Positions 216-46,122 of a stretch of 64,000 nucleotides of DNA are shown piece after piece. The DNA lies in NCBI GenBank assembly GCA_964552005.1, contig CAZKFC010000002.1, positions 35,188-99,187 on the forward strand, in the 5' to 3' direction. Position numbers and translations under genes: made by a program. The notes under the pieces are model-generated. The model made no database searches and was not told the origin of the DNA. It saw only the letters and a program-made list of their open reading frames with translations. This DNA is from an uncultured Methanosarcinales archaeon (GTDB taxonomy: Archaea; Nanobdellota; Nanobdellia; Woesearchaeales; GW2011-AR15). Each line of letters opens with the position of its first letter. The stretch's first letter is position 1.

Positions 216-2171
216 TTGAAAGATATTGTCTTTAATCTATTATTAAAAGACCCATTAGGAGCGTATGTTGAATTAAAGCGTATAAAAAGAAGGCAAAAAA
301 TTTTTTTAGAGAAATCAGATGACGAGCACGCGGTCTACTGTTTAACTAATTACATAGCAGTCCTGGATTATTTAATTGAACACCTGGAAAACACAAAAAT
401 AGTAATAATTGCAAAGCCTTATCTGGCAGGGTATGAAATTGGAGACAGGCTTGTTTATAGACGTATCTTTAACCCGACAATAAAACCAGATTTTATGTAT
501 GCAAAATTAATGGCAACTTACCCAAAAGATGGTGAAGAGATTGATAGTTATACTATTGGCCAGGACACCGAGATTACTATTTTTAAATTAGCTAACAGCG
601 TAAAAACACTATATCATATGATGCCTCCTGAATTTAAATTAAGCGAGGAAAAATATGAGTTGTTGGACACTGCCCGGAACATAATGGCAGAGCATAAGCC
701 AAAACGAAGCGATTTTGTTGACCCTGGAAGAATGCGTGAAGTATTTTATAATGTGGGAAAAGACCTTATTGAAGAGCTGGCAGGTTACCGCCATATTTCT
801 TTACGAGAAAAAGAACTAGAGCAACTAACTCATATTTTGGTGAGGTATACTGTTGGCTTTGGTCTAATTGAAGTTTTGTTGCAGGATGAAAATATCCAAG
901 ACATCTCCATTAATAGCCCAATGGGGCGCACACCAATGTTTATTGTACATAGCACGCACGAGGATTGTTTTACCAACATAATACCAACGCCGCAGGAAGC
1001 TGAAAGTTGGGCTGCTAAGCTAAGAATGATTTCAGGCAGACCATTAGATGAAGCTAACCCTATTCTAGACACAGAATTATTATTGCCCGGAGCATCAACA
1101 AGGGTCTCTGCAATAAATCCTCCTTTAAATCCTACTGGATTAGCATTTTCATTTAGAAGACATAGAGATAAACCATGGACACTGCCTTTGTTCATCAAAA
1201 ATAAGATGATAAACCCGCTAGCAGCAGGATTATTAAGTTTTTTGATAGATGGTACAAGGACATTAATGGTCTGTGGAACTAGAAGCAGCGGTAAAACAAG
1301 TTTTCTCTCTTCCATAATGGTAGAGATTATGAAAAGATACAGGCTAATTACGATTGAAGATACTTTAGAATTGCCCGTACCACAATTACGAGATTTGGGT
1401 TTTAATATACAATCCATGAAAGTAAGCAGTGCGCTAACCAAGACAGGTTCTGAGGTGGACGCTTCAACTGGTATAAGGGCTACTTTAAGATTGGGTGATT
1501 CTTCCCTTATAATAGGAGAAGTGCGTAGCAAAGAGGCTGTTGCATTGTATGAGGCAATGAGGGTTGGAGCCGCTGCGAATGTTGTTGCAGGAACATTACA
1601 CGCAGATTCGCCGTATGGGTTATATGATAGAGTTGTTAATGATATTGGCGTTCCTAGAACAAGCTTTAAGGCAACTGATATTATTTTAGTTGCTGCCCCT
1701 ATTAAATCTGCAGACGGCTTACATAAATATAGGCGTATAATACAAATAACAGAAGTACAGAAAACATGGGAAAAAGATCCTTTATTAGAAAAAGGTTTTC
1801 TTGACTTGATGAAATACGATGCTAAAAAAGACGAGTTAATACCCACACCAGACCTGGTAAATGGCGAGTCTGAAATTTTGAAAACAATTGCAGGAAAGAT
1901 AGCTGATTATGCTGGCAACTGGGACGCTGTCTGGCAGGACATATTATTAAGAGCAAAATACAGAGAAGATATTGTTAATAAAGCTGCTGAACTAGAAGAT
2001 GATGATATGTTGGAAGCTCCTTTTGTTATTTTATGTAATGACATGTTCCATATTATTAGTGAAAGAGTTAAAGAAAAGACAGGTAAATTAAATCATGAAA
2101 AAATTTACAGGGAATGGAAGATATGGTTTAATCAGGAATTAAGAAAAAGAAAAATTAAAAAACAAGAGTAA
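216..2171 (+). CDS. Secretion-system ATPase of the VirB11/GspE/FlaI/TadA superfamily. The reading frame stays open back to base 1 and the track start is a TTG, so the gene is probably 5'-truncated by the window edge.
   Basis: Walker A 'GTRSSGKTS', Asp-box 'ITIEDTLELPVP' and downstream His-box-like region typical of archaeal FlaI/TadA ATPases. No in-frame ATG upstream within the window. Confidence 0.72.
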   Translation: MKDIVFNLLLKDPLGAYVELKRIKRRQKIFLEKSDDEHAVYCLTNYIAVLDYLIEHLENTKIVIIAKPYLAGYEIGDRLVYRRIFNPTIKPDFMYAKLMATYPKDGEEIDSYTIGQDTEITIFKLANSVKTLYHMMPPEFKLSEEKYELLDTARNIMAEHKPKRSDFVDPGRMREVFYNVGKDLIEELAGYRHISLREKELEQLTHILVRYTVGFGLIEVLLQDENIQDISINSPMGRTPMFIVHSTHEDCFTNIIPTPQEAESWAAKLRMISGRPLDEANPILDTELLLPGASTRVSAINPPLNPTGLAFSFRRHRDKPWTLPLFIKNKMINPLAAGLLSFLIDGTRTLMVCGTRSSGKTSFLSSIMVEIMKRYRLITIEDTLELPVPQLRDLGFNIQSMKVSSALTKTGSEVDASTGIRATLRLGDSSLIIGEVRSKEAVALYEAMRVGAAANVVAGTLHADSPYGLYDRVVNDIGVPRTSFKATDIILVAAPIKSADGLHKYRRIIQITEVQKTWEKDPLLEKGFLDLMKYDAKKDELIPTPDLVNGESEILKTIAGKIADYAGNWDAVWQDILLRAKYREDIVNKAAELEDDDMLEAPFVILCNDMFHIISERVKEKTGKLNHEKIYREWKIWFNQELRKRKIKKQE

Positions 2172-5100
2172 TTATTCTGGTATAAGGCACTGATGCCACC
2201 AATCCCCGTAACTGCCTTTTGTTTGATAACAGTTTTCCACACTGTAATCACAATATTCGGCTGTTCCACAAATATGGACTTTTGCTTTTGTGGACTCTAA
2301 ACTTGGCTCACATAGTATCATCGCAACATATTCTTTTCCATCAATCGTGACAAAATCACCTATAAGACCTTCTTTAACTGTTCCATCTGCATCAGGACAA
2401 TGTTGTGGTAAATCCAATGTTTTTTCAAAACAATCTTCAATACCATGATAGATATAATTAATTCCATTAACTGGTGTTTTACTTTCAGGCGTTTCAGATG
2501 GCTCATCATATGTACCATCTTCATCACAGCCAAAGCATTTGTAAACAACATTATTAGAACCAACTTCACTCCCTAAATTCTGTAATCTTATTGTAAGATT
2601 AATACAAGGTCCTCCTGGCACAGGTTCTTCAATGCCGCATTCTGTTATTGGAGTATCGAGCTGGCCCAATCTGTTATAAATGTCTTTGCCAACACATTCA
2701 TTTTCGCATAATTCAACTGTCCAACTATAATTTATTAGAGACTCTGAAGTTACTGTTTCATCACCTAAATGGAAAGGTATTACTGCTAATATATTAGCAT
2801 CAGTTAACCAATTATCAAAAGATAGTTCCATTTCATCAGCATAATCATCAGCTTCATAATCTGGCAAATCTGGCTGTACAATATCTGGATGCGGGCCCCA
2901 CGCTGTTTCTGTAATCATAATTTTGCCAATGCATAATTCGTCTGGCTGGCAAACAACTGCTGTATTTTCTGTGCTTGCTGTATTTGGACATAAATCAATA
3001 TCATCATCATATCCGTCATTATCAGAATCTTGGCATGCGTCTCCTATGCCGTCATTATTCCAATCTTTTTGCAATGGGTTTGGGTCATTAGCACAGTTAT
3101 CACAGACATCTCCTATGCCATCACCGTCTTCATCTTCTTGATTAAGTTGGCATTTTCCACTATCACATTGGTCATCAGACAAACAAGTTATAGTATGATC
3201 GTTTTTGCAAGTTCCCAAGTCAGGTCCATTTGGCGTATACATGCAGTTATCAACACAATCTATTGTAATGTCTTGAATATCATTATAAACACATTTTTGT
3301 GTAAATCCAATCTCCGGAATACCGTCATCGTCTGTATTATCATCACATTTATCGCCAATATCATCATTATCTAAATCTTTTTGGTCTCTATTTGGTTTAT
3401 CCACACAGTTATCACAAGTGTCTGCCCACCCGTCACCATCTATGTCAGTTCCTTCTTGTATTGTGTTATCATCTGGACATTTATCATCAATGTCTAAAAC
3501 ACCATCGCTATCATAATCTTCACACGCATCACCATAATCATTGTTATTCCAGTTCAATTGATTTTCATTTGGTGTGTTAATACAATTATCTTCTGTATCT
3601 TTAATTCCGTCATTATCTGTGTCTTGTGCATCAATTGCTGTACATTTTATATTGAAGTCTTGTGTTTGGCTGCATAATGATTTTACTAGTTTAAACCTAT
3701 CTTTGTAGGCCTGCATACCAAAGGGATTAGAACCGCCCGGATATGTATCAATATCATCTACAGAAGGATATGAGTGGTCTGCGTATAAATCCATTAAACT
3801 ACACACTTGTGCACCATAATCAATATCAGATAACATTTTAGTTAAATAGCTATTAGTATCAACCTCAACATTTTTTTCATAGCAGAATTTTTGGAATGTT
3901 TCTTTAATTCTCTGTTGTATTACTTTTGCTTTGTCGACTTCTGCCATATCACAACTTTCTACAGGGATATTTAAATCAGAAAAAACATGTTCAAAATCTG
4001 TTTTATAAAAATCATACCAGCTCAAGATGTGTTTGATATAATTCTTTTTTGGACTGCATATACAATTTTCTCTTTCTTGTTGTGTATTAAAACAATCAGT
4101 TTCTATATATAATTCATCATCACATTCTGGATCAACATTAGTGTCACAACGATTACAAACAGGGTCACAAGAAGGTGCAACATAATTGTCAGGTGTTTCA
4201 CCTGTACAATAATTCTTATCTCCGCTCAAATAGTCTGTCATATATCCCAATAATTCACAATCAGCTTTTGTAAAACTATATTGCTCAGCACCTCCATTAT
4301 ATTTTTCAACCATATCAAATGTGGATGGTTCTCCATGTGTATCTTTAGCATAATAAGGGCTTAACTCACATTTTTGTTGTCCAGTAGTTGGTGCTAACCC
4401 TGCAGGCATTATTTTTATAGAATTACCATGCGGCAAGGCTTTTATAGCAGACGCCATCTCAACAAAATATCGTGCATATTGTTTAATTTCATAATCTGTA
4501 ACAGAAATATCGTTCCATTCTTTAGCTAAGTTAGGTTCTTCACCTATTTCTATATACAAAGTCCATTCAGGTTTATCTGCATGTATTCTGTTAATTAACT
4601 CAACTGCTTTATCAATATCAGTAGTATAATCATATATAGGAATGCCTGTTGTTCCATCTTCATCCTCACCATAAATACAGTCTAAATTATCTGCACACTC
4701 TCCTGGATGTTTAGAAAAATCGTTTGCTTTTTCTTTTTTTAATGTAATAACAGGTATTAGTTCTTGATCATAGATTTTATTAAACACAGTTTCATAAAAC
4801 TCAAGATAATTATCTACATCAGGGTCATAATATGTTATTAATTTGACATAGCCACATGGACCGCTAAATTGGTTTGAGCATGCCAAATCCCTGTCAACTA
4901 TTAAATCGGCAAAATCTGAATCTTCATACAAAATATCATGAAACATAACTTGCAGACCTTGTTTAACAGAGCCTTCACAGCTTGCAGACCACTCAGATAA
5001 ATGTGGCGTAGATGTTTTTACTTTGTTTTTTTCAACATCTGCAGAACTCTCAACTGTTACCCAATGGTTGTCTTTCAGATAAGCAAGTTTAAAAGATTCT

Positions 5101-5819
5101 TCAACAGCAGCTCCTGACACATGGTTATCCTCATATCTTATTGTCAATAAAGCATCTGGAGAGAATTCAATACTTTCAGGAGTAAATTCATATTTTACTT
5201 TTCCTAAAACAGAAGGATCATCTGGACATTCTTCTTTAACATAAACTTGAATCTCATCTAAACCTGGTGTTACTTTTGTACCTTTTTTAATACTTAACTC
5301 TAAATCCAAATCTGGACTTACCAACACCTGGTCTTTAACTGTTTTTGAATTTGTGTCAAGTTCTAAAGAAAGTGATTTTGTTCGGGGTAATGATAAACTA
5401 GATTTTTCAAATTTTACAACTGTATCATCTCTAGAAAATTGCATGGGATACACAATATCAACAATAATTTCTTCTTCTGTTATGCGGACATCAATTTTAT
5501 CTGGCCTGCTTTTGGCAGTAACCTCATAGCCTTTCCTCCTATATTTATCAAAACCAATACATGTTGACATCCCTCTATTGATTGTTCCCTTAATATCATT
5601 TTCTTCACACAAACCATAATCATCAATAGACTTTAATAGCAAAGTATATAAACAATCATCAAACTGGCTTCTCAAAGAACTTTGAGTGACAGTTGTTGGT
5701 GTCTCTCGGGTAAGCTGTTGTTTTTTAACAACTGTGCTCCTGTATGCAAAAAAACTTATCATAAGTATTAATAAAATACCAATTATGACATATATTGTAA
5801 CTTGAGATTTAGATTTCAT
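2172..5819 (-). CDS. Giant (1215 aa) secreted or membrane-anchored Cys-rich protein with multiple thrombospondin type-3-like Ca-binding repeats and a possible TIM-barrel glycosidase-like middle domain.
   Basis: N-terminal hydrophobic anchor 'VIIGILLILMISFFAY'. Repeated DxDxDGxxDxxDxC motifs (e.g. 'DTDNDGIKDTEDNC', 'DIDGDGWADTCDNC', 'DEDGDGIGDVCDNCANDPNPLQKDWNNDGIGDAC'). 'IEIGEEPN' resembles the GH5 NEP motif (weak). Confidence 0.7.
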   Translation of the reverse strand: MKSKSQVTIYVIIGILLILMISFFAYRSTVVKKQQLTRETPTTVTQSSLRSQFDDCLYTLLLKSIDDYGLCEENDIKGTINRGMSTCIGFDKYRRKGYEVTAKSRPDKIDVRITEEEIIVDIVYPMQFSRDDTVVKFEKSSLSLPRTKSLSLELDTNSKTVKDQVLVSPDLDLELSIKKGTKVTPGLDEIQVYVKEECPDDPSVLGKVKYEFTPESIEFSPDALLTIRYEDNHVSGAAVEESFKLAYLKDNHWVTVESSADVEKNKVKTSTPHLSEWSASCEGSVKQGLQVMFHDILYEDSDFADLIVDRDLACSNQFSGPCGYVKLITYYDPDVDNYLEFYETVFNKIYDQELIPVITLKKEKANDFSKHPGECADNLDCIYGEDEDGTTGIPIYDYTTDIDKAVELINRIHADKPEWTLYIEIGEEPNLAKEWNDISVTDYEIKQYARYFVEMASAIKALPHGNSIKIMPAGLAPTTGQQKCELSPYYAKDTHGEPSTFDMVEKYNGGAEQYSFTKADCELLGYMTDYLSGDKNYCTGETPDNYVAPSCDPVCNRCDTNVDPECDDELYIETDCFNTQQERENCICSPKKNYIKHILSWYDFYKTDFEHVFSDLNIPVESCDMAEVDKAKVIQQRIKETFQKFCYEKNVEVDTNSYLTKMLSDIDYGAQVCSLMDLYADHSYPSVDDIDTYPGGSNPFGMQAYKDRFKLVKSLCSQTQDFNIKCTAIDAQDTDNDGIKDTEDNCINTPNENQLNWNNNDYGDACEDYDSDGVLDIDDKCPDDNTIQEGTDIDGDGWADTCDNCVDKPNRDQKDLDNDDIGDKCDDNTDDDGIPEIGFTQKCVYNDIQDITIDCVDNCMYTPNGPDLGTCKNDHTITCLSDDQCDSGKCQLNQEDEDGDGIGDVCDNCANDPNPLQKDWNNDGIGDACQDSDNDGYDDDIDLCPNTASTENTAVVCQPDELCIGKIMITETAWGPHPDIVQPDLPDYEADDYADEMELSFDNWLTDANILAVIPFHLGDETVTSESLINYSWTVELCENECVGKDIYNRLGQLDTPITECGIEEPVPGGPCINLTIRLQNLGSEVGSNNVVYKCFGCDEDGTYDEPSETPESKTPVNGINYIYHGIEDCFEKTLDLPQHCPDADGTVKEGLIGDFVTIDGKEYVAMILCEPSLESTKAKVHICGTAEYCDYSVENCYQTKGSYGDWWHQCLIPE

Positions 5820-11403: not shown

Positions 11404-12966
11404 TTGTTAAAATTTTCAAAAGATTTATTAAAGACTCTATATACTAATTTCTCTATAAAAAAGGGGTATTATATGGAAACAAGAGCTATTGATTCTTATC
11501 AGCTTATGGTTAATGAGACAATTCCCTTACAAATTCATATATACAGCCAAAAAGGAAAGGCCGTGCCGTTCTACCATTTATCTTTATTGGATATTACTGA
11601 TGAAACTAAAAGGATTATAGAGAGGATAAGAGAAGATATCATAACAAGTTTAAGTTTTGAGTTAACTAAGAAAAAAACAAAAGAAGGCGAAGAAGAGATA
11701 AAAGAACAGTTTCAAAAAAAACTTAAAGAAATTATAAAGACGCAATTTTCAGATTTAAAAGAGAAAGATATTGGTTTAATAACAAATTACATAATAGTAA
11801 CCAGTCTAGGATTGGCAGAGATTGAGTTTTTATTAAAGGATGCTGAACTTGAAGAAATTGTTGTTAATTCATCAAAAGATCCTGTCTGGGTCTACCATAG
11901 AAAATACGGTTGGTTAAAAACCAATATTGTGTTCAAACAAGAGAATAAAATTAGGCATTTTTCAACTTTAATAGGAAGAAATGTAGATAAAAACATTAGT
12001 TTATTAGAACCATTATTAGATGCACATCTAAAATCTGGGGACAGGGTAAACGCTACATTAAGCCCAATAACTACAAAAGGCAATACAATAACAATAAGAA
12101 AATTTTCTAAGACACCATGGACAATAACTCATTTCATAAAAAATAAAACTATAGATTATACTTCTGCAGCCCTTATATGGCAGGCTATACAATATGAATT
12201 ATCAATATTAATAGCAGGCGGAACAGGCTCAGGAAAAACTTCTTTTCTTAATGTAATAAGCAATTTTTTTCCTCCTAATCAAAGGATTATATCTATTGAA
12301 GATACCCGTGAGCTTAGATTGCCCAAAACCCTACATTGGGTCCCTATGCAGGCCCGTCTACCAAATCCAGAAGGCAAAGGCGAAATTACCATGCTAGATT
12401 GTATGATTAATACTTTAAGGATGCGTCCAGATAGAATAATAGTTGGAGAAGTTAGACGTGAGAAAGAACTTGAAGTTATGTTTGAAGCAATGCACACAGG
12501 CCATTCTGTTTACAGCACGTTTCACGCTAGCAACATAGATGAAGCTATAGCCAGACTAACAAATCCGCCTATTAATTTGCCAAAACAATTGCTTTCCTCA
12601 ATAGGCCTAATTGTTGTACAACATCGGAATAGAAGAACTGGAAAAAGAATTACTTTCCAGATAGCAGAAATAAATGAATTAGGCCAGCCCGTATTATTGC
12701 TACAGCATGATTATCTCGGAGATACTATGAAACAAGTTAATTCGCCAAACAGAATTTTAAAAACATTAAACATGTATACTGGCATGTCAACAAAACAGAT
12801 ATACGCAGACATACAAGAGAAAGTTGCGGTATTAGAATGGCTTGTAAAGCAAAACATTACAGACATCAATATAATAGGATTAATAATGAGTGATTATTAC
12901 ACAGAAAAACAGCACATTATATCTTTAGTACAAACAAACAGCCCATATAAGTCAATAGGTGAATAA
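11404..12966 (+). CDS. Type IV pilus or archaellum assembly ATPase (FlaI/TadA/PilB-like).
   Basis: Walker A 'GGTGSGKTS', 'IISIEDTRELRL' and His-box 'FEAMHTGHSVYSTFHA'. Confidence 0.8.
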   Translation: MLKFSKDLLKTLYTNFSIKKGYYMETRAIDSYQLMVNETIPLQIHIYSQKGKAVPFYHLSLLDITDETKRIIERIREDIITSLSFELTKKKTKEGEEEIKEQFQKKLKEIIKTQFSDLKEKDIGLITNYIIVTSLGLAEIEFLLKDAELEEIVVNSSKDPVWVYHRKYGWLKTNIVFKQENKIRHFSTLIGRNVDKNISLLEPLLDAHLKSGDRVNATLSPITTKGNTITIRKFSKTPWTITHFIKNKTIDYTSAALIWQAIQYELSILIAGGTGSGKTSFLNVISNFFPPNQRIISIEDTRELRLPKTLHWVPMQARLPNPEGKGEITMLDCMINTLRMRPDRIIVGEVRREKELEVMFEAMHTGHSVYSTFHASNIDEAIARLTNPPINLPKQLLSSIGLIVVQHRNRRTGKRITFQIAEINELGQPVLLLQHDYLGDTMKQVNSPNRILKTLNMYTGMSTKQIYADIQEKVAVLEWLVKQNITDINIIGLIMSDYYTEKQHIISLVQTNSPYKSIGE

Positions 12967-13106
12967 ATCTGTTCTTCTCAAAACAATTTGAGGAAACTTT
13001 AAAAAAAGCCCAGCTTGGATATGATATAGAAAAATTTTCAAAATTAGTTTTTACATTTAGCTTTATTGGTTCTATATTATTAACTTTATTTGGATTATTA
13101 TTTGTT

Positions 13107-13763
13107 ATGCAATTAAAATTGCCTTATTATTTTCTTACAATAATTTTTGCTATTTCATTTTTATTAATATTCCAATTAATAAAATTAATCCCTTCATTCA
13201 GTGTGCAAAATAAACGTGCATTACTTGAATCAGATTTATTATATAGTACTAGGCACTTATTATTAAAATTAGAAAGCGGTTCTTCTTTGCTTAACGCGTT
13301 AGAAAGTGTTTCAAAATTAAAGACAAATTCAAGTGTTTTTTTCAAAGAAATAATTTATGATGTGTCTCTGGGAATGCCAATTGAAAAGGCATTAGAAAAA
13401 GCAATTGAATACAGCCCAAGCAAAGCTTTTACTAAAATAATTGAGGAAATACAAACCTCTTTGGTAACTGGAGCAGATTTGCAGAAAACATTAAAATCAA
13501 CATTAAAAGATGTAACAAGACAGCACCTAATAGCAATACAAGAATATGGTAAAAAACTTAATCCCATGTCTATGTTTTACATGATTATTGGCACAATAGT
13601 TCCTTCTTTGGGAACAGCAATGACAGTTGTAGCCACAAGTTTGTTACCGGGTGCAATAATAATTGACAGGCGAATTTTAATGTTTATAGCTGGTTTATTA
13701 TTAGTAATACAGATTTTTTTCATATTAGGATTTAAATCATTGAAGCCAATGGTGATTGAATAA
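13107..13763 (+). CDS. TadB/TadC/FlaJ-like pilus platform membrane protein (first of two). The true start may be the in-frame TTG at 12987, which adds one more TM helix.
   Basis: T2SS-F-like hydrophobic pattern. It sits immediately downstream of the ATPase. The in-frame upstream extension encodes the TM-like segment 'LVFTFSFIGSILLTLFGLLFV'. Confidence 0.55.
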   Translation: MQLKLPYYFLTIIFAISFLLIFQLIKLIPSFSVQNKRALLESDLLYSTRHLLLKLESGSSLLNALESVSKLKTNSSVFFKEIIYDVSLGMPIEKALEKAIEYSPSKAFTKIIEEIQTSLVTGADLQKTLKSTLKDVTRQHLIAIQEYGKKLNPMSMFYMIIGTIVPSLGTAMTVVATSLLPGAIIIDRRILMFIAGLLLVIQIFFILGFKSLKPMVIE

Positions 13764-14767
13764 TGTTTTATGGATTAGGAAAAGCAATTTTACCAGATAA
13801 AATAAGTAAACATATTAAGAAATATGTTCAAAAAACTGGCTTATATAACGTGCCTTATTCATTATATGGAAGTTTATTTGTATTATCAATCTTAGTTTCA
13901 ATAGGCGTCTATGTTTTTTTTGTATTTCCAAGTTTAAAAACAGCCAATCCAATTGTTTTAGGATTAGGATCGTTTATTGCACTTACAGTAATTGATTTAA
14001 TTTTAATAACTATAATTGCTTTAGTATTATGGTTGTACTATGAATTTATAATCTTTAATAGAGTTAGGCAGATTGAAGATGTTCTGCCAGATTTTTTGCA
14101 AGAAGTTTCTGTTAATTTACGAGCAGGAATGAGTTTTGACAAAGCTTTGTGGAATAGTATGGAGCCGGAATTCGGTGTATTAGAAACAGAAATAGAAACA
14201 GTTGCAAAGAAAGTCATGACAGGTAAAGATACTGAGCAAGCATTAAAAGAATTTTCTCAAAAATATAATTCAACATTGCTACAAGAATCCATGGACATGA
14301 TTATTGTTGGATTAAGATCTGGTGGCAACATATCTGATTTAATAGACAGGATAGTTGATAATGTCAAAGACGCGTATTACTTAAGAAAAGAATTAATTGC
14401 TTCTGTCACAAGTTATGTTATTTTTATTGCATTTACTGCTGTTTTGATATCTCCAACACTGTTTGCATTATCCTTTAATTTAATGGAAATAATCCAAGGA
14501 TTAGGAGAAAAATTATCCACTACAAGTTCTTATGGTGTGCTGCCTTTTAATGTGGGTTTTAAAAGCATTAACCCTGAAGATTTTATTTTGTTTTCAAAAA
14601 TTTCTGTTATTATAATATCAACAATATCTGCGATGATAATTGCAGATTTGCGTGAAGGAAGTATAAAAGCAGGCCTTAAATATTTACTGGCTTTTATACC
14701 ATTGGCTTATTTTACATATATTGGCATGTTAACAATATTCACAAGTATTTTTGGAATCATAATTTAG
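13763..14767 (+). CDS. TadC/FlaJ-like pilus platform membrane protein (second of two).
   Basis: Polytopic protein with a cytoplasmic helical domain (T2SS-F-like). Its start overlaps the stop of the upstream gene (ATGA). Confidence 0.6.
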   Translation: MFYGLGKAILPDKISKHIKKYVQKTGLYNVPYSLYGSLFVLSILVSIGVYVFFVFPSLKTANPIVLGLGSFIALTVIDLILITIIALVLWLYYEFIIFNRVRQIEDVLPDFLQEVSVNLRAGMSFDKALWNSMEPEFGVLETEIETVAKKVMTGKDTEQALKEFSQKYNSTLLQESMDMIIVGLRSGGNISDLIDRIVDNVKDAYYLRKELIASVTSYVIFIAFTAVLISPTLFALSFNLMEIIQGLGEKLSTTSSYGVLPFNVGFKSINPEDFILFSKISVIIISTISAMIIADLREGSIKAGLKYLLAFIPLAYFTYIGMLTIFTSIFGIII

Positions 14768-15198: not shown

Positions 15199-16108
15199 CT
15201 GTATCTAAGTCAGTAAAATCACAGTAATCTTTACCAATGCCCGTTGTTGTTTGTTCACCAAAATAGAGATAATCAATAACAGACCTGTTCTTTTTCAAAA
15301 GTCCTTGCTCAAACAACTCTTCGACATTCACCATGCTCTCAATTCCAAAGGGTGATGATGATAAATTACCAGTAAATCTCATTAAGAAACTTGGCGCATC
15401 TGTATGATTAATATAATAAGAATTTAACAAATGCCCTTCTAAAATAGTAGTATCATTATTAGGACCAATAAAAGTCATATTTGGCGTAATGTTTACTAGA
15501 TTAGTAACTTTGTCTGAGGTTTCAACCGTATAAAGCGGATCTTCAAACCCAATTATCGAAAATTCTTGTTTGTATTCTTTATCAAAAACCCATGATGCCA
15601 GACCCTTAACATCGCTTATGTTTATGGTTGCGTTAAGCCTTACTTCAACCGTCCAAGGTGTTATATGTTGGATACTTACTTCATGGACTTTTACTGAAGT
15701 AATAATATTAAGTTCATCTGCTTCTTCATTTACTCTGGCAACCCAACTATTAATGTCTGCACCCTGTGTTTCCTGTCTCATTAAGCTCATTGTAATATTA
15801 CCATTGTCTGCTGTTCCATTTACCAATATCTCTGTAAATGTTTCGTCAAGATCTGTTACATAACCTTGGATTTGTCTAACGTAAGCGTTCATACTGATTA
15901 GTGCCCTATATCCTCCTATGAATAACTCCCTTTCCAAATCTTCATCAAAATCTTGGATAAAATTGTTCATTGTTTTAACTCTTGAATATATTGCACTGCT
16001 TCTTTCTCTATATCTATATGTATCTTTAGTAGTTACAACTGCCACCACCAAGATAATAACAAACAATGCTATAAATGTAAAAAACACGCCCTTATTATTT
16101 ATCTCCAT
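15110..16108 (-). CDS. Pilin-like protein with a class III signal peptide-like N-terminus.
   Basis: 'MEINNKGVFFTFIALFVIILVVAVV'. It overlaps the upstream giant pilin by 10 nt, which suggests translational coupling. Confidence 0.5.
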   Translation of the reverse strand: MEINNKGVFFTFIALFVIILVVAVVTTKDTYRYRERSSAIYSRVKTMNNFIQDFDEDLERELFIGGYRALISMNAYVRQIQGYVTDLDETFTEILVNGTADNGNITMSLMRQETQGADINSWVARVNEEADELNIITSVKVHEVSIQHITPWTVEVRLNATINISDVKGLASWVFDKEYKQEFSIIGFEDPLYTVETSDKVTNLVNITPNMTFIGPNNDTTILEGHLLNSYYINHTDAPSFLMRFTGNLSSSPFGIESMVNVEELFEQGLLKKNRSVIDYLYFGEQTTTGIGKDYCDFTDLDTDVRELFRIERVPNDHLILYGVNDLSKSPC

Positions 16109-19100
16109 ACTCTTACCTCAGCTAATGCAGGTCCCCATGGATATGGGATTTTACCAACTGAAATTGCGCCAATAACAAAATTTTGTTCTTCAATATTAAC
16201 ATATATACGGCCGTCATCATCAAAATCTAAGTTATCAAGTAAATTATACATTGCATCATCATACGTATCATTAGCATCATAACTTATAGAAGCGTTTGTG
16301 TAATAACATTGTTTTGTGCCTGTATATGTTGGCGGTACATCCACTGTTGTATTTTCTCCATCTTCAAATTCAATAGACCATTCACAACCGATGGCTTTTT
16401 CTAAAACATCGCTATATGAAACAGAAGCTGTAAATTGCGCAGTATAAATCAAGGTATTATTTTTAGAACATTCAGTATAATTTAAAGGTGAATCACCTGT
16501 TCTAATGAAAAAACTATTGTTACCTGCTTGCAATGTTGGCACAGGTATATTAACTAAGAACGGATCACCCATGGCTGTATAATCTGTTGAATAATCACTT
16601 AGATTATATACAGAATTATTGTTTACTATTAAAGCATCTGTCCAGTGTTCAGATGAATATGACGTTAACTTTGAGTTTGAAACACGGACATCTCCAGGAA
16701 TATATACATTGAAAGAACAGCCTGGGAAATTTTTTTCTTCTACGATAATTGAAATTTCGCCAAACTCTGGCGGGTCTACTAATGGATCATATTCTATATC
16801 TATATTAGAGTCACCATATAAAATACTTTCAGAGATATCTCCTGAACCTTCAATTTCAATCGTCTGTGAATGTCTAGTAGCAGAGATTATTGTAGAGGCA
16901 ACATCCTGATAAAATTGCTGCAGAGCAGTAATATTATCGCTTTTTCTATATATACCATTACCGCAATCTGCTATACCCTGTAAAGTTGTTTCATCAGCAT
17001 TATCACTAAAGCCAACAGCATAAACTGTAATACCATACTCTTGCCTAGCATCACAAGCTGCCTGGATAGCATCCTGGATAGCGTCTCCTGTTCCTTGCTG
17101 AGCGCATTGCCTATTTGCAACACCGTCTGTCATGACCATTATTGCATCTTCCCTTGTGTCATTTAATATTATTAATTCTAAATCAAATTTGGCTGCTCTT
17201 GCAGTATTTGATAAGTCAACAGCAACAACATTATCGCCTTGCTTAAAATATTCTCTTGGCACTTGTATACCGCGAGCATTCCAATATTGGGCAAAACTTG
17301 GATTTGGACTTATATATATTAGTTGGCCATTCAAATATACTTTTGCTGTATCATCATACAAAACATTAAGAACTCCTCTTCCAACTTGATTTAAATCCGC
17401 AACATTAAAGTGTTTTCTAAAATAATAATGGTTTGTTTTATTAGTAATTTTTAACTCAATGTTGTCAAATCTCCACCAGCCGTATTCTTGACTTTCAGAC
17501 GCTCGTAATTTCCCGCCAAGTTCAAGATAATAATTTCCTGGACCTGTTATCCATGGAGAAACGTCTTGGCTGTATGTGCCTGAAAATTCTGCATCGGGAT
17601 TATCCATTGTAAAAATCTCAGGATCATTATCAGAGCCACCATCATTAGCATCTAAGTCTGTACCAAGATAATTTGAACTTGTTGAGCTGGACCATCTAGC
17701 TTTTACCCAGACTTGGTCAGATGTTTCAAAAGGATTGTCATTACCATCCCATTCATAATTAAATGAGAGGATTGCTGCTCCGTTTGCCTGTATTAAATTG
17801 TACATTTCCTGCGTAATATTGATTTCTATACCATACGCACCAGAACAATCATAATTCGAGCAATCATTTTGTGTAATGTCATTATCCATTTCCAATACTT
17901 TGTTAGGTCCAACAGTTACAACTTGATTATAATCAATGTTATCATCAAAACCAAATACACCATTATTATCTAATGTGTCCCAGTCCCAGCCGTCATCATT
18001 TCCAGTAATACCAAAAGTATTGGCAGTTGAATTTAAAACACCTGATGAAAAGTCGTTAGGCGGTCCTGTAATATCTCCAGTATTTTCCCATAGATTTGCA
18101 TAGATTGCATCTGGGTCAAGTTCTTCAAATTCTAATTGTATATTATCAAACCTAAATGTGCCCCATTCTGTATTCTCACTTGCAAGTAATTTCCCACCTA
18201 TAGCCAAATAATATAATCCTGGCCCTTCTATAAAGGAGGTAATTTCTTGTGAATATGTGCCAGAAAAGTCTGTATCAGGATTAGTACGTCTGTCAACTTC
18301 TAAAGTTGTATCTCCTCCAGAAGAAGATAATTCCGCACCTAAATAATTAGTGCCAGAGGTAGGACTCCACCAGTAAGATTTTATCCAGACTTCATCTGTG
18401 CTTTCAAAGGGATTGTTGTCATTACCGTCCCAGTTATAGTTAAAAGAAATCTTTACTTTTCCTCCGTTTACTACAGCATTATATAATTCAGAAGTTATGT
18501 TAATGGCTATGCCATAAGCACCACTACAATCAAAATTTGTACACGCATTACTGCCAGCAACACTTGTATTAAACTCTAACTGTCCGTTAACTATCTCGTT
18601 ATAGCTAATATCGTCATCATATCCAAAAGGGCCTGAACCATCATTATTATTATCATAATCCCAGCCGTCATTATTGCCCGTGCTGCCGAACGTATTAGCT
18701 GTATAATTTAATATGCCAGATGAAAAGTCATTGGGTGGCCCGGGATTATCTAAATTATGTTCCCATAAATTTGCATAAGAAGTATTTCCTGCTAAAGAAC
18801 TGCCAATTTCTGTATCTACAATAGGGCTATAGACAAATCCATTAGTAGAACCATAAATAGCATTATCACTATAAGACCAATCTGATTCATTATCATAATT
18901 ATTATGATACCATGAATCTCCGTCATCATCTACAGGCGGCGGACTAAGAAAATAATTAGTAGTGTAATACCATTGCTCTTTTGACTGAATAACTGTGTTT
19001 TTTGAAATATTCTCTGTTAATATTGCAACAGCACTATTTATACCGCAGCATACACAAGTCGCGCCGCTGCCTTCATATCCTGTTTCTGGTACAGCTGTTC

Positions 19101-20550
19101 CGATTGTCTGATTTAATATATCAAAATTCGTCGTAGGATATACTGTCTCAAATGCATGTGTAGTATCATCATAAGAAATTAAACCTACTTGGTTTCCAGT
19201 TATGTTTAATATATCTTTTGAAAACTGTTTATCAAGACATTTAGCTACACTTAGCCTTGCTGTGCTTGAATCATTAAAATTTGCATCATCACAATTGCGT
19301 GCAGTGCCTGTATTATCACTATCCATACGCCAATCCATACTTCCAGACACGTCTGTTACTAATGTAACATCGGCATTTCCCTCAAAGATAAAGCCAAAAC
19401 TTACATTTTCAAAGCCAACTCGTATAGGCACGGTTTTAGCATTCATTGATGACAAGGCAATATATTTAGTAATGTTCTGCACAGTTACTGTGTGGTTTTT
19501 CTCTCCTGTTAAATTACTATCTTTATAGACGGTTGAATTTCCTATTGTCAAATAAAAAGTATTATTTGTGGCATTTGTGGCATTAACAAAATAATGTAGA
19601 TAAACTGATATGTTGTTTAGTGTTCCTGGAACATAAAAGGAAGAGTATAAATTAATTATGCCTTCTATATTGGGAAGCCATTCTTTTAGCGCATATTTTA
19701 ATGGTTCTTGCTGAAGAACATCTGTTTGGTAATCTACTCTTATAAAACCACCTCCAATAAATGCTTCTCCTAAATCACCTAAAAACGAAATTGAAAAATT
19801 ATTTTTTGCACCCTCGGCTAAAGAATTATCGCAACTGCTTATATCCCATGCATCTGCAGTCATTGTACCTGTACCTGCACTATAAATTCCGCCACACTGC
19901 ACACCATTTATATCTAAATTAAAATCAGAGCCAGCATCAAGTTCTAAATATAATCCTGTGATATTAATATCAGATGGTAAGACTATAAACCCTGAAATAT
20001 TGCCTTGACCAACGAAACCTCCAAAATACAGGTAAGAAGAATATTTTTTCCTTCTAATTCCTTTTAAATAAACTTTTGATGTTGCTCCTCTTAATGGCTT
20101 AAACTTTTCTATGCCGGATATTAATCTTCGGGAAGAAACTAATTCATCTTTTTTCCCTGTTGGAGAATCATTCAGATAAATAGACTCGCCATTTACCAAA
20201 ATCTCAAAACCAAATTTATCTGGGATTAATTTTTCACTTACAATAATAGACAAATTTCTAGCCAACTCAGTTTTGTTCAAAACATAAAATTCGCCAATTT
20301 GTTCTATAACTGAATTATTAAGATTGATTATTTCACCTGAACTTATAAGAGACTGTATGTAAGAATCATTAACTTCTGTAATCTTTATATTAGATAGGCT
20401 TGCCACAATGTCCTGGGAATAATAGTTTATTTGTGGTTGTTGTATTTCTGAAATGAAATATTTTGATGAAAGTATTAGAGCCATGCCTATTAAAATTGTG
20501 GCAAACAACGCATCTAAAGTAAAAAAATATCCTTTCTTCATTCTTGCCAC
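16099..20550 (-). CDS. Giant pilin-like adhesin (1483 aa): class III signal-like N-terminus, a vWA domain apparently interrupted by a large insertion, and a tandem duplication of about 225 aa.
   Basis: 'MARMKKGYFFTLDALFATILIGMAL'. MIDAS 'DVSGSM' near aa 400. Second-half vWA motifs 'AIMVMTDGV...GITVYAVGFS' near aa 1135. Repeats begin 'YANLWEHNLDNPGPPNDFSSG' (aa 592) and 'YANLWENTGDITGPPNDFSSG' (aa 817). Confidence 0.7.
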   Translation of the reverse strand: MARMKKGYFFTLDALFATILIGMALILSSKYFISEIQQPQINYYSQDIVASLSNIKITEVNDSYIQSLISSGEIINLNNSVIEQIGEFYVLNKTELARNLSIIVSEKLIPDKFGFEILVNGESIYLNDSPTGKKDELVSSRRLISGIEKFKPLRGATSKVYLKGIRRKKYSSYLYFGGFVGQGNISGFIVLPSDINITGLYLELDAGSDFNLDINGVQCGGIYSAGTGTMTADAWDISSCDNSLAEGAKNNFSISFLGDLGEAFIGGGFIRVDYQTDVLQQEPLKYALKEWLPNIEGIINLYSSFYVPGTLNNISVYLHYFVNATNATNNTFYLTIGNSTVYKDSNLTGEKNHTVTVQNITKYIALSSMNAKTVPIRVGFENVSFGFIFEGNADVTLVTDVSGSMDWRMDSDNTGTARNCDDANFNDSSTARLSVAKCLDKQFSKDILNITGNQVGLISYDDTTHAFETVYPTTNFDILNQTIGTAVPETGYEGSGATCVCCGINSAVAILTENISKNTVIQSKEQWYYTTNYFLSPPPVDDDGDSWYHNNYDNESDWSYSDNAIYGSTNGFVYSPIVDTEIGSSLAGNTSYANLWEHNLDNPGPPNDFSSGILNYTANTFGSTGNNDGWDYDNNNDGSGPFGYDDDISYNEIVNGQLEFNTSVAGSNACTNFDCSGAYGIAINITSELYNAVVNGGKVKISFNYNWDGNDNNPFESTDEVWIKSYWWSPTSGTNYLGAELSSSGGDTTLEVDRRTNPDTDFSGTYSQEITSFIEGPGLYYLAIGGKLLASENTEWGTFRFDNIQLEFEELDPDAIYANLWENTGDITGPPNDFSSGVLNSTANTFGITGNDDGWDWDTLDNNGVFGFDDNIDYNQVVTVGPNKVLEMDNDITQNDCSNYDCSGAYGIEINITQEMYNLIQANGAAILSFNYEWDGNDNPFETSDQVWVKARWSSSTSSNYLGTDLDANDGGSDNDPEIFTMDNPDAEFSGTYSQDVSPWITGPGNYYLELGGKLRASESQEYGWWRFDNIELKITNKTNHYYFRKHFNVADLNQVGRGVLNVLYDDTAKVYLNGQLIYISPNPSFAQYWNARGIQVPREYFKQGDNVVAVDLSNTARAAKFDLELIILNDTREDAIMVMTDGVANRQCAQQGTGDAIQDAIQAACDARQEYGITVYAVGFSDNADETTLQGIADCGNGIYRKSDNITALQQFYQDVASTIISATRHSQTIEIEGSGDISESILYGDSNIDIEYDPLVDPPEFGEISIIVEEKNFPGCSFNVYIPGDVRVSNSKLTSYSSEHWTDALIVNNNSVYNLSDYSTDYTAMGDPFLVNIPVPTLQAGNNSFFIRTGDSPLNYTECSKNNTLIYTAQFTASVSYSDVLEKAIGCEWSIEFEDGENTTVDVPPTYTGTKQCYYTNASISYDANDTYDDAMYNLLDNLDFDDDGRIYVNIEEQNFVIGAISVGKIPYPWGPALAEVRVWR
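17428..18777 (-). repeat. Intragenic tandem duplication (two units of about 675 nt / 225 aa) inside the giant pilin gene.
   Basis: The two units align along their full length ('...NDFSSG.LN.TANTFG.TGN.DGWD.D...DCSGAYGI.INIT.E.YN....G....SFNY.WDGNDN.PFE..D.VW.K..W....S.NYLG..L...DG......D.PD..FSGTYSQ.....I.GPG.YYL..GGKL.ASE....G..RFDNI.L'). Confidence 0.55.
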
Positions 20551-21710
20551 AGTACCACCTTCATTGCAATAATTTCAGATATGCCGTCATGTTTATAAAC
20601 AACATATCTTGTTAAGGCTATTAATTTTTCTGGATTGGATGCTTTTACATCGTTAATAGAGGAAAGGTTTTGTGCTGTTGCAAAAGGATATGCTAAGCCA
20701 TTGCCGGAGTTGTACAATCTACCAATCTCATTTAAATCTAACGCCCTGTTCCATATCCCAATTTCATCAATTTTTCCGTCAATAATCAACGACTCTGACG
20801 TGGTTGAAAGAATATGTAAACCATTACTTCCCACATTTAATGTGTTTGTATTTATATCTGTATCTCCAAGCACTCCGTTCTTATAATATTTAAATTCATT
20901 AGTTGTAGAATCATGCGTAATCGCAATGTGTTGATAGATTGAATCATTTAATGTCCAGCCATCATTACATACTGTAGCTTTTCCCACAAGAACAAAAGCT
21001 ATTTTATGACCTGCTGAACAACCGTGAGAAGCAGTAGCTTCTTCTCTTATGCCCCATCCATCATCCATAAAGATGTATTCTCCATCGTCTTGTCCATTTG
21101 GTGAATACCAGAAACTTATAGTTAAATCTCCTGTTACATCAAAATCATCGTAATCTGGCGCTTCCAGAAATCCTGCACCATTACTTTCTCTACCGTCTCC
21201 AATAATTCCCGCTGTATTAGTTGTTCCTGAGTTCAATAAATCTATATTTCCTAATTCGTCTGAAAAATCATTATTGTTCAATTTATAGTATGCAATTAAA
21301 CCGTTTTCTAAAGTATCATTGCCTTTATAATTATCAAATCCCCACAAAACATTTCCTTCCTTATCTTCAAAATACACTAAAAAATCAGATTTTATTCCAA
21401 ACAAATTTTTTACTTTATTGCTATTCTTATTAGTAAGATTAATTAGATATTGCAGTTTGGTTGTATTTAAAATATTGCCCTTATCAACAACACCGGGTAT
21501 TAATACTGTGTCTTCTGTCCAGTTAGTGGGAATTCCCATTGTCAATAATGTTTCACTTAATTTTTCTGCTTCTGACAAAACATTGTTTGTTTCCTTACCT
21601 GGTATATAAAAATTGCTTGTAACAAATTTAAAGGCTATTATTAATATCAATGTAAATATAGTTACACCCATGATAAAATCAAAGTACCATATTTGGTTTT
21701 TTTTATTCAT
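20538..21710 (-). CDS. Pilin-like protein with a LamG/concanavalin-A-like lectin domain.
   Basis: N-terminus 'MNKKNQIWYFDFIMGVTIFTLILIIAF'. Central 'GLIAYYKLNNND...LLNSGTT...GAGFLEAPDYDDFD...LTISFWYSP' is LamG-like. Confidence 0.62.
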   Translation of the reverse strand: MNKKNQIWYFDFIMGVTIFTLILIIAFKFVTSNFYIPGKETNNVLSEAEKLSETLLTMGIPTNWTEDTVLIPGVVDKGNILNTTKLQYLINLTNKNSNKVKNLFGIKSDFLVYFEDKEGNVLWGFDNYKGNDTLENGLIAYYKLNNNDFSDELGNIDLLNSGTTNTAGIIGDGRESNGAGFLEAPDYDDFDVTGDLTISFWYSPNGQDDGEYIFMDDGWGIREEATASHGCSAGHKIAFVLVGKATVCNDGWTLNDSIYQHIAITHDSTTNEFKYYKNGVLGDTDINTNTLNVGSNGLHILSTTSESLIIDGKIDEIGIWNRALDLNEIGRLYNSGNGLAYPFATAQNLSSINDVKASNPEKLIALTRYVVYKHDGISEIIAMKVVLWQE

Positions 21711-21711
21711 T

Positions 21712-22059
21712 TTAACAGTTTAAACATAACACATTATTTTGGTTTGTAATTATATTATCTCCTTTTTGAATATATCCTGTTATGTTTGGTATTGAAAAAT
21801 AAACAACATTATCCGAATAATTTAACAATAGGATGTTGTTTATTATGGAAACTTCAAAATCAAACCCCTCCAATTTTTGTGGTATGTAAAATACCCGAGT
21901 ATAACCTGGCTTTGTTTGTTTAGCTATCAGGAACTCGTTCTGCAAACTGTAGCCATAATCCTCAAAAATAATCCTTTTTTTATCTCTTAAATTGTCTTGG
22001 TAGAGTTCTGAGAAAACAACTGTAAAGATTATTACCATGGTTGTTGCTGCCATTATCAT
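21712..22059 (-). CDS. Pilin-like protein. The annotated ATG lies inside the predicted class III signal; the conserved 'RKAQVSTEF' motif is encoded in-frame upstream (22060–22161) with no ATG/GTG/TTG.
   Basis: In-frame upstream translation '...IKFFEFQSSSGTLRKAQVSTEFIFMIMAATTMVIIFTVVF'. An in-frame stop lies at 22162–22164. Confidence 0.45.
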   Translation of the reverse strand: MIMAATTMVIIFTVVFSELYQDNLRDKKRIIFEDYGYSLQNEFLIAKQTKPGYTRVFYIPQKLEGFDFEVSIINNILLLNYSDNVVYFSIPNITGYIQKGDNIITNQNNVLCLNC

Positions 22060-22139
22060 AAAAATAAACTCTGTACTTACTTGCGCTTTTCTTAAAGTCC
22101 CAGAAGAACTTTGAAATTCGAAAAATTTTATTTTTTCTT

Positions 22140-22547
22140 TTATCCTGATATCGATACAACATCACCAGAAGATTCTATAACTATATAATGAATGCCGGGG
22201 TTAACAGAAATAGATCCTGTTAGATTAACTTGTGAAACTGAAACAATATCTTGAATGTGGTTTTTTGCTGTCCTATAACCAAAGATTATTGTCCGTGATG
22301 TTATATTAATGTAGTCTATCCGTTCTGGAAACTGTGTTTTTAAAGTGGTTTTAGACGGCTCTCCTAAGTAATATATTGTCTCTGCCTTATCTGTGATTTT
22401 TATGGCAATATTTCTTAGATGATTAGTCGCTATGGCATCCTGAACTGTGCCAGATTGATCAAAAAAAATAATTATTAAGGGAATAGTCATCAAAAAAACA
22501 AAACCGAATATCGTAATAAACTCAACACTAACTTGACCTCTTTTCAT
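22140..22547 (-). CDS. Archaeal type IV pilin (DUF361/EppA-substrate-like); a candidate major pilin.
   Basis: 'MKRGQVSVEFITIFGFVFLMTIPLIIIFF' has the KRG|QxSxEF class III signal and a hydrophobic N-terminal helix. 135 aa. Confidence 0.65.
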   Translation of the reverse strand: MKRGQVSVEFITIFGFVFLMTIPLIIIFFDQSGTVQDAIATNHLRNIAIKITDKAETIYYLGEPSKTTLKTQFPERIDYINITSRTIIFGYRTAKNHIQDIVSVSQVNLTGSISVNPGIHYIVIESSGDVVSISG

Positions 22548-45802: not shown

Positions 45803-46122
45803 AGAAGGTGTAGAGCAGTTATAAGCCACCTTTTGTCAAACTTAACGCATCTCTGCATTAATAGTTTGTCTTAACATTCAACTTAGCCTCTCAAAGGAGT
45901 TGCACAAGCAAGGGCTCACCGTTTCATCCTTTCCTGAAAAAATGTCAAGAGGTTATCTCAGGATTGTCGCCAATCCCTTCGCATCCATCATCCTATTTTC
46001 AGGCGGTTTCGTTTCTGAGTGGTTGCCATCCTTTTCAGGATCTCGCTTCCACGAGTTGCCTTTTGTAGTGGGTGGACTTTCCTCACATTAAATGCGAAAG
46101 TTAAGCACTGCCCTACAGTATT
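45803..46122 (-). ncRNA. rnpB: RNase P RNA (archaeal, reduced type).
   Basis: On the minus strand, in order: P1 (UGUAGGGCAGU pairing with ACUGCUCUACA), P2 (CUUAAC/GUUAAG), CR-I 'GAGGAAAGUCCACC' (plus 46074–46084), CR-II-like 'GGAUGAAACGGUG', CR-IV-like 'UGUGCAAC', CR-V 'ACAAAAGGUGGCUUAU' (plus 45821–45836). The P4 5'-AGUCCACC pairs with GGUGGCUU and keeps the same U·C mismatch as E. coli. GC content is locally elevated. The overlapping ORF 45900..46091 is spurious. Confidence 0.62.

Follow-up and report, generated by a model that had tools for sequence, protein, structure and literature searches.

Pilin 2, the second gene of a minus-strand pilin operon in a Woesearchaeota-like DPANN archaeon, lacks a canonical start codon upstream of its conserved class III signal, and its translation probably begins (with a probability of roughly three in four) by Shine-Dalgarno (SD)-directed initiation at a near-cognate AUC codon (22155-22153). 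The proposed coding sequence (CDS) runs from this ATC to the pilin-2 stop codon (22155..21712, minus strand) and would encode a precursor of 147 codons with a predicted cleavage after Ala24. This reading is based on (i) the signal motif encoded upstream of the called ATG, (ii) the co-conservation of an SD-like element and of an ATY codon at constant spacing in 12 lineages, and (iii) the presence of the same arrangement in a second subfamily whose upstream gene does not overlap.

The pilin-2 frame and its pilus locus

The window, i.e. the whole stretch of 64,000 nucleotides that was analysed, contains the features listed in the table. Upstream of the called ATG, the pilin-2 frame on the minus strand translates as stop-CCIDIRIKEKIKFFEFQSSSGTLRKA↓QVSTEFIFM..., where the arrow marks the predicted cleavage site; the 5' extension in full reads stop-CCIDIRIKEKIKFFEFQSSSGTLRKAQVSTEF and, when continued through the called ATG, stop-CCIDIRIKEKIKFFEFQSSSGTLRKAQVSTEFIF-M-IMAATT. 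The upstream in-frame stop is a TGA (22164-22162), and neither ATG, GTG nor TTG occurs in the 26 codons from this stop to the Q of the motif. The pilin-1 stop (TAA, 22142-22140) lies within this open stretch, in a different frame, and the called ATG is located amid the hydrophobic helix (QVSTEFIF-M-IMAATTMVIIFTVVF). An earlier sequence-only reading of the same DNA had described an annotated ATG (22059) inside the hydrophobic helix, a class III motif upstream of it in the same frame, the lack of ATG, GTG and TTG between the in-frame stop and this motif, and the overlap of the pilin-1 stop with the open stretch; the translation bears out this description, to which the Pfam search adds independent weight for the motif. 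Indeed, the Class_IIIsignal profile (PF04021) matches pilin 2 with 29.7 bits, above its gathering score of 23.7, and the motif is therefore not a chance resemblance. The alignment (RKAQVSTEFIFMIM..., RKAQVSTEF...) covers profile positions 1-27 of 27, and this full match is obtained only when the part upstream of the pilin-2 ATG is included.

Pilin 2 is best explained as a minor pilin of the type IV class that is still functional. A basic leader followed by [KR][GAS]↓Q-x-S-x-E-F, which characterizes class III signals, is present in the form RKA↓QVSTEF. A hydrophobic N-terminal helix followed by a beta-rich head, as in type IV pilins, is predicted by the AlphaFold2 model (pLDDT 88.8; helix 2-58; seven strands). 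Finally, the gene is linked to a pilus ATPase and platform genes (T2SSE/T2SSF, 11404-14767) and to other pilins (pilin 1, genes 3 and 4). A scan of the pilins against NCBIfam gave nothing useful.

Pilin 1 is the first gene of the operon; its 3' end overlaps the proposed pilin-2 CDS by 16 nt, and its protein is found as an identical copy on 12 contigs. The ATG of gene 3 (21710) is located 1 nt past the pilin-2 stop, and the product of this gene shows a match to Laminin_G_3 (PF13385, E = 8.8e-16) and a weak one to the TafC fimbrial protein in NCBIfam. Gene 4, called as 1480 aa by JGI, has a class III-like N-terminus, and its ATG at 20541 overlaps the stop of gene 3 as ATGA. As TGA serves as a stop in this overlap, there is no sign of codon reassignment, and an altered genetic code was rejected. 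No match to the Peptidase_A24 family or to a prepilin peptidase was obtained in the ~33 window ORFs scanned, which lie before 41288, nor was an aIF1 gene found among the window ORFs scanned. The window is of archaeal origin, given its archaeal RNase P RNA; it has a GC content of ~31% and carries no tRNA or rRNA genes.

Table. Coordinates of the pilin-2 region and of the associated pilus genes in the window (↓, predicted cleavage site)
Feature	Position	Strand	Basis or remark
Pilin 1, 135 aa, MKRG↓QVSVEF...	22140..22547	-	ORF list; weak Class_IIIsignal match
SD-like GGTGAT	22161..22166	-	In pilin-1 Gly-Asp codons; GGTG[AG]T in 12/12 lineages
Proposed start ATC (AUC)	22153..22155	-	5 nt after GGTGAT, pilin-2 frame
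Predicted class III leader, 24 codons, (M/I)DIRIKEKIKFFEFQSSSGTLRKA	22084..22155	-	Translation; ends at predicted cleavage site A↓Q
51-nt lineage-specific insertion in leader	~22086..22136	-	Versus L015 and L016; exact edges uncertain within a few nt
Mature pilin 2, 123 aa, starts QVSTEF	21715..22083	-	PF04021; N-terminal hydrophobic helix and beta head
Called pilin-2 start, internal ATG	22057..22059	-	ORF list; mis-annotated, inside transmembrane helix
Pilin-2 stop codon TAA	21712..21714	-	Sequence and ORF list
Gene 3, 390 aa, hydrophobic pilin-like N-terminus and ConA-like lectin domain	20538..21710	-	Pfam PF13385
Gene 4, ~1480 aa, MKKG↓YFFTLDA, VWA domain	16099..20550	-	ORF list and Pfam
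T2SSE ATPase, pilus assembly	11404-12966	+	Pfam PF00437
T2SSF/TadC platform protein (as called)	13107-13763	+	Pfam PF00482
Second T2SSF/TadC platform protein	13763-14767	+	Pfam PF00482
Archaeal RNase P RNA	45810-46116

Conservation of the signal, of an SD-like element and of an ATY codon

A search for pilin-2 homologs yielded eight clusters (P0001-P0008; 57-99% identity), all of which are called from a Met within the helix or the motif, and the position of the first internal Met varies among these orthologs. DNA was available for six of the eight clusters and, together with the window and five lineages from scans of metagenomes and GTDB genomes, makes up a set of 12 lineages. The cleavage site is kept in all of them ([KR]-x↓Q-x-S/T-x-E-F; K[ASCG]↓Q.S.EF), with synonymous alternation of the motif codons (CAA/CAG, AGT/AGC, GAA/GAG, TTT/TTC), and none of the 12 has a canonical start in the stretch that leads from the in-frame stop to the Q. 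Since the motif is kept and the canonical start is missing in all orthologs, this absence is an old and conserved property. The comparison of orthologous loci, which had been suggested along with the sequence-only reading, thus revealed no ortholog that starts at an internal ATG and has lost the motif.

An SD-like element and a codon of the pilin-2 frame are conserved together, as GGTG[AG]T-N5-AT[CT] followed by an open frame into the cleavage site, in each of the 12 lineages; the codon at the start position is ATC in eight and ATT in four of them, and the spacing is constant. In the window, the TGA that closes the pilin-2 frame is part of GGTGAT, and ATC 22155-22153 is the sole conserved start candidate between this TGA and the Q. 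GGTGAT is complementary to the 16S rRNA 3' tail in its general archaeal form; the anti-SD of the host was assumed from this consensus, the host 16S gene being located outside the window. Several genuine ATG starts of the window (e.g. 13763, 40267, 54995 and 44938) are likewise preceded, at a distance of 3-8 nt, by motifs of the GGTGA type. Two features expected of a near-cognate start are found here, namely conserved N-terminal coding sequence with no canonical start, in 12 of 12 lineages and in two more distant members (L030 and L031, see below), and an SD co-conserved at initiation spacing, as judged with the assumed consensus anti-SD.

The bases of the SD and of the ATY codon lie in codons of pilin 1 (...S-G-D/G-x-V/A-S/L...), which was used as an internal control for synonymous drift. 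The Gly in which the SD is embedded is encoded by GGT in all 12 lineages, whereas the control invariant Gly residues of pilin 1 at -10 and -17 (10 and 17 codons upstream) each use all four Gly codons. In the same way, the A of ATY is kept in 12 of 12, being supplied by a pilin-1 codon that reads GTA in 11 lineages and GCA in the remaining one, whereas GTT, GTC and GTA are all used for the control invariant Val at -21. The pilin-1 codon that follows is T[CT]N throughout (TCN for Ser, TTR for Leu) and never AGY. As synonymous sites are saturated even in the closest pairs (dS > 1), this conservation points to nucleotide-level selection on GGTGAT and ATY at fixed spacing. Part of the conservation of GGTGAT and of GTA-TCN could come from the protein constraint on pilin 1 (SGD..VS), an account that is opposed by the synonymous-site control in a sample of only 12 lineages.

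A profile search of 1.84 billion representatives retrieved 949 members of the pilin-2 family at E <= 1e-3. Among the top 150 of these 949, ~108 possess a canonical Met followed by a leader of 3-52 residues (median 7; a range that includes the 24 residues of the window leader) and then Q...EF, and in another 25 the called start falls within the motif or the helix. DNA was obtained for three members called short, from more distant subfamilies (L030, L031 and L032). One of them is a plain mis-call and was rejected as a non-canonical start, a normal ATG being present in L032 (P0141; MNKKS↓QSAMEF); the other two are devoid of any canonical start. L030 reads GAGGGTGAG-N4-ATA-AAA-TTA-AGA-AAA-GCT↓CAA and L031 reads GGAGGGTGAGG-N4-ATC-GCA-CTA-AGA-AAA-GCA↓CAG, and the products predicted from these ATH codons carry KLRKA or ALRKA before ↓QVAVEF. 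The gene upstream, identified in L030 as an ortholog of pilin 1 (39% identity, E = 2e-30), stops 80-90 nt short of the SD, and pilin 1 in this clade terminates with ...ESHDIYVSLSD, without the Gly that bears the embedded SD in the first clade. Of the models considered, only SD-directed initiation at AUH would account for both clades.

The leader predicted for pilin 2 of the window (including a peptide such as IKFFEFQSSSGTLR) is net positive; in pilin-2 relatives, leaders are 4-10 residues long (7 in most) and all contain K or R. A 51-nt insertion within it distinguishes the window lineage from L015 and L016, in which CACAA/GCTCAA directly follows GGATAAAAG. This insertion is a multiple of three and carries no stop in the pilin-2 frame, which would be required if translation starts at ATC 22155 and unnecessary if it starts beside the cleavage site. 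With regard to its origin, a repeat search found no duplication. The window lineage also has further in-frame ATH codons downstream (ATC 22149, ATA 22143 and ATA 22131), which lack an SD at initiation spacing and are possible extra starts.

All long ORFs of the window were also scanned for codons that precede the first canonical start and have an SD match of at least 5 nt at a distance of 3-9 nt before them. Once the cases abutting a real ATG were set aside, two hits were obtained, ATC 22155 and CTG 12969. The latter (AGGTGA-N6-CTG) directly follows the pilus ATPase gene and would extend the first T2SSF gene by 46 codons at its 5' end; here too, the called ATG (13107) falls within a transmembrane helix, and the SD includes the TGA that bounds the frame. 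Homologs of this T2SSF protein are 262-272 aa long and cover the extra 46 residues, and the start Met of P0175, an ortholog sharing 88% identity, aligns exactly with the window CTG. The window protein itself is present in the database only as a short call of 218 aa, on four contigs. The use of near-cognate start codons behind a strong SD may thus be habitual in this organism, or at any rate in its pilus locus.

Other readings of the missing start

The best of the other readings, although a highly improbable one, is termination-reinitiation at the NTA codon that overlaps the pilin-1 stop (ATAA/GTAA/TTAA), 2-3 codons before the Q; the familiar ATGA overlap of stop and start would here have degenerated. 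Most orthologs do have an NTA codon in the pilin-2 frame that overlaps the stop of pilin 1 and immediately precedes [KR]x↓Q; canonical relatives start exactly at this place (P0010, MRA↓Q; P0019, MRS↓Q; P0022, MKS↓Q; L025, with ATGA), and an ATGA overlap is in use between genes 3 and 4 of the same operon. Because the ATG of the canonical relatives is at the NTA site, pilin 2 may plausibly have lost its ATG through a change of ATGA to ATAA. However, neither the codon at this site (ATA, GTA or TTA; in L021, AGT) nor its distance from the Q is constant, GTA and TTA each have two mismatches to AUG, and the window stop is 51 nt further from the Q, so that the leader would still be long. Reinitiation also leaves the frozen synonymous sites of the SD and ATY unexplained. 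Furthermore, L030 and L031 have no overlapping upstream gene, hence nothing to reinitiate from or to frameshift out of, and the occurrence of the same SD and ATH design in an intergenic spacer of 80-90 nt argues against both processes as the general mechanism. A start at TTA 22095 (LRKA↓Q), which aligns with the NTA position of the relatives, was rejected, as it has no SD and we know of no use of TTA as a start codon.

It is highly doubtful that the internal ATG 22059 is the true start, in which case no class III signal would be made and the upstream QxSxEF would be an untranslated relic. This ATG is the first canonical start in frame, and all gene callers took it or a nearby internal Met. Nevertheless, it is in mid-helix, the first internal Met moves among orthologs, the full 27-position Pfam profile needs the upstream part, and the motif is placed behind a canonical Met in ~108 of the 150 family representatives considered. 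Moreover, the 9-10 codons upstream are under codon-level purifying selection in 12 lineages whose synonymous sites are saturated, and the region upstream of the pilin-2 ATG is thus selected at the protein level.

A programmed -1 frameshift from pilin 1, with the internal SD as stimulator, would produce a pilin1-pilin2 fusion. SD-like elements within coding regions stimulate frameshifting in bacterial dnaX and prfB, and the pilin-2 frame is indeed -1 relative to pilin 1, with an overlap. Such a shift is nonetheless very unlikely, since none of the lineages has a slippery heptamer (X XXY YYZ) in the stretch from the SD to the stop of pilin 1, and L030 and L031 offer no upstream ORF to shift from, except a mini-ORF of 3-5 codons without an SD of its own. 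The topology would also be wrong: from what is expected of pilin biogenesis, the chain would be outside after the pilin-1 helix and the second site away from the cytoplasmic peptidase. A +1 shift from the GTG in GGTGAT (third frame; GTG-ATG-TTG in the window) was rejected as well: no separate SD precedes the GTG, neither the ATG nor the TTG is conserved, and in L017 and L024 a stop ends this frame after 4-5 codons.

An artefact of sequencing or assembly and a recent pseudogenisation, both of which had been offered as explanations from the sequence alone and of which an absent start codon is the usual signature, are scarcely credible here despite the odd 51-nt insertion in the leader, since (i) the 170 nt around the pilin-1/pilin-2 junction are base-for-base identical in all 13 loci that reach the junction, from ~10 samples and three pipelines (ENA/MEGAHIT, JGI and Logan; exact-protein look-ups, plus L022 via the metagenome scan), (ii) the absence of a canonical start is common to 12 lineages sharing 54-100% protein identity, with ORF and motif intact and synonymous sites saturated, (iii) mature pilin 2 has a dN/dS of ~0.10, with dS > 1, against its nearest diverged relatives (L015 and L016), and (iv) the insertion keeps the frame and contains no stop.

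Proposed mechanism and comparison with known systems

In the proposed mechanism, GGUGAU near the 3' end of pilin 1 would place the small ribosomal subunit 5 nt upstream of AUC, where the initiator tRNA would mispair at the third position and translation would start. AUC is reportedly among the weakest near-cognate codons in E. coli, and output from it would probably be a small fraction of the efficiency of AUG. Ribosomes that end on pilin 1, 13 nt downstream, may add initiation via coupling, which would not be required. Prepilin peptidase would then cut the basic leader at [KR]x↓Q and expose the QxSxEF N-terminus. From the comparative data, we infer that AUC is the codon really used, that its low output sets the stoichiometry of a minor pilin and that the leader is cleaved. 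The non-canonical start envisaged in the sequence-only reading would therefore stand in kind, with ATC 22155-22153 as the codon rather than the ATA or ATT named there; the translational coupling or recoding also envisaged would not be needed, given the design of L030 and L031 and the lack of a slippery site, although coupling may still contribute where the genes overlap.

A weak start behind a strong SD would be a simple way to obtain a fixed low ratio of a minor pilin to the upstream pilin. As gene callers cut off the class III signal of pilin 2, signal-peptide tools miss such pilins, and the short-called pilins are also lost to surveys of the surface structures that DPANN archaea use for host attachment. 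The SD and AUY of 12 lineages, the SD and AUA/AUC of the second subfamily and the SD and CUG candidate of T2SSF provide a concrete and testable archaeal case. That Woesearchaeota-like DPANN archaea routinely use SD-positioned AUC, AUU, AUA and CUG starts, and set the ratios of their type IV pilus subunits in this way, is a broader reading towards which the balance tips only slightly. If it holds, (i) this would be, so far as the literature consulted shows, the first conserved non-canonical initiation at a sole start described in Archaea, (ii) start-codon proofreading by aIF1 would be relaxed or exploited in the lineage, and (iii) part of the DPANN pilin repertoire would be invisible to signal-peptide predictors because gene callers shorten it.

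In Archaea, no conserved non-canonical sole start was found in the literature consulted. A review of 2021 considers non-canonical translation in this domain to be shown only for elongation and termination (PMC8211752), and aIF1 reportedly selects against starts other than the canonical ones (PMC6237735). In Haloferax volcanii, ribosome profiling with harringtonine found ~30% near-cognate codons among putative alternative initiation sites, which were set aside as possible false positives (PMC7261190). These data are in line with the proposal for pilin 2 in that archaeal ribosomes can sit on near-cognate codons (PMC7261190); unlike pilin 2, the Haloferax sites have no demonstrated conservation and are mostly alternative rather than sole starts.

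Among known pilins, the Epd pilins of Methanococcus maripaludis carry class III signals (QxSxEF / DUF361-type) processed by EppA (PMC3875500, PMC4390842). Pilin 2 shares with them a short basic leader, a Q at +1, Q-x-S-x-E-F and a hydrophobic helix, as well as a setting in which several pilin genes per operon are found beside large adhesin-like pilins and near T2SSE/T2SSF genes; sequence similarity is confined to the signal region. Pilin 2 differs from Epd in belonging to a DPANN (Woesearchaeota-like) host with no EppA-like peptidase among the window ORFs scanned. To our knowledge, Methanococcus pilins use canonical starts.

Like genes joined by ATGA overlaps and translational coupling, pilin 2 begins inside or beside the end of the gene before it, pilin 1; the distant homolog L025 and the gene 3/gene 4 pair of the window have a textbook ATGA overlap. 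Pilin 2 differs from such genes in that the overlap of the ATY clade is ~16 nt with a non-canonical start, and in that coupling would be unneeded in L030 and L031.

The closest parallels are bacterial near-cognate starts accompanied by a strong or extended SD, such as the AUU of infC and pcnB in E. coli (PMC13009471). In S. aureus, infC (AUA), cvfC1 (AUU) and ccpN (AUA) conserve both the weak codon and the extended SD, and the output is ~10% of that of AUG (PMC13009471), a level that would suit a low-copy subunit such as pilin 2. As in these cases, AUH in place of AUG and a strong SD at optimal spacing are co-conserved across species. Unlike them, pilin 2 mostly has AUC, the SD and putative start of its main clade lie within the reading frame of the gene before it, and it comes from an archaeon, in which initiation relies on aIF1/aIF1A/aIF2 and not on proofreading by IF3. 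In summary, pilin 2 would represent an archaeal, gene-embedded and AUC-preferring form of a known translational attenuation rather than a new principle.

Proposed near-cognate starts in the pilus locus and in the pilin-2 family

The called start of the T2SSF/TadC-like platform gene (ATG 13107) falls within a transmembrane helix. Upstream of it, the same frame is open as far as the TGA contained in a Shine-Dalgarno (SD) motif, AGGTGA (12957-12962), and includes a CTG (12969-12971) located 6 nt downstream of this motif. The 46 extra residues encoded upstream are covered by homologs of 262-272 aa, and the homolog P0175, which shares 88% identity with the window T2SSF protein, has a methionine aligned with the CTG. 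The CTG probably represents a further near-cognate start, the second in this pilus locus.

In the second pilin-2 subfamily, represented by loci L030 and L031, a canonical start is absent from the start regions. The sister clusters P0161, P0163, P0166 and P0169 have normal ATG starts, and sequence comparison thus indicates that the pilin-2 family has changed from one kind of start to the other, canonical or near-cognate, more than once. Among the best 150 of the 949 cluster representatives of the family, 25 were called from within the signal motif or helix, a figure that includes at least one plain mis-call and is not a count of non-canonical starts. The mis-call is P0141, at locus L032, where a normal ATG is present.

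Table. Features of the pilus locus, of pilin-2 homologs and of the rest of the window
Feature	Location	Strand	Remarks
T2SSF/TadC-like platform gene, 5' region	window 12957-13107	+	called ATG 13107
Distant pilin-2 homolog, start region	L025:2960-3010		27% identity; MKRA|QISMEF
Second pilin-2 subfamily, start region	L030:2374-2473; L031:2412-2501		strong intergenic SD, then ATA or ATC
Insertion in pilin-2 leader, 51 nt	window ~22086-22136	-	in frame, stop-free
61-aa listed ORF	window 21980-22165	-	starts GTG-ATG-TTG; third frame across pilin junction
Two genes downstream of pilin 2	window 16099-21710	-	hydrophobic pilin-like N-termini
Second T2SSE-family ATPase	window 216-2171	+
Thrombospondin type 3 repeat protein, 1215 aa	window 2172-5819	-	adjoins second T2SSE-family ATPase
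Archaeal RNase P RNA	window 45810-46116	-	RF00373, 147.7 bits

Evolution of the pilin junction

At L025, the distant homolog begins at a canonical ATG that forms a textbook ATGA overlap together with the TGA stop of the upstream pilin; this arrangement is probably ancestral. A change from ATGA to ATAA would have destroyed the pilin-2 start and left pilin 1 still terminated. The leader insertion is specific to the window lineage and extends the predicted pilin-2 leader from 7 to 24 residues; a repeat search found no duplication or repeat origin for it. The 61-aa ORF, which begins within the GGTGAT motif, is probably spurious because the ATG/TTG is not conserved in orthologs, and the open frame is not either.

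RNA genes and other surface-structure genes

RNase P RNA is the sole Rfam match in the 64-kb window, in which ARAGORN found no tRNA genes. The second ATPase gene and the neighboring thrombospondin-repeat gene may constitute a second surface-filament or adhesion module. The two genes following pilin 2, which overlap via ATGA, encode products of 390 aa and ~1480 aa. The pilin-like N-terminus is followed by a fused ConA-like lectin domain in the shorter protein and by a fused VWA domain in the longer one; judged by sequence, both proteins look like adhesin-type pilins.
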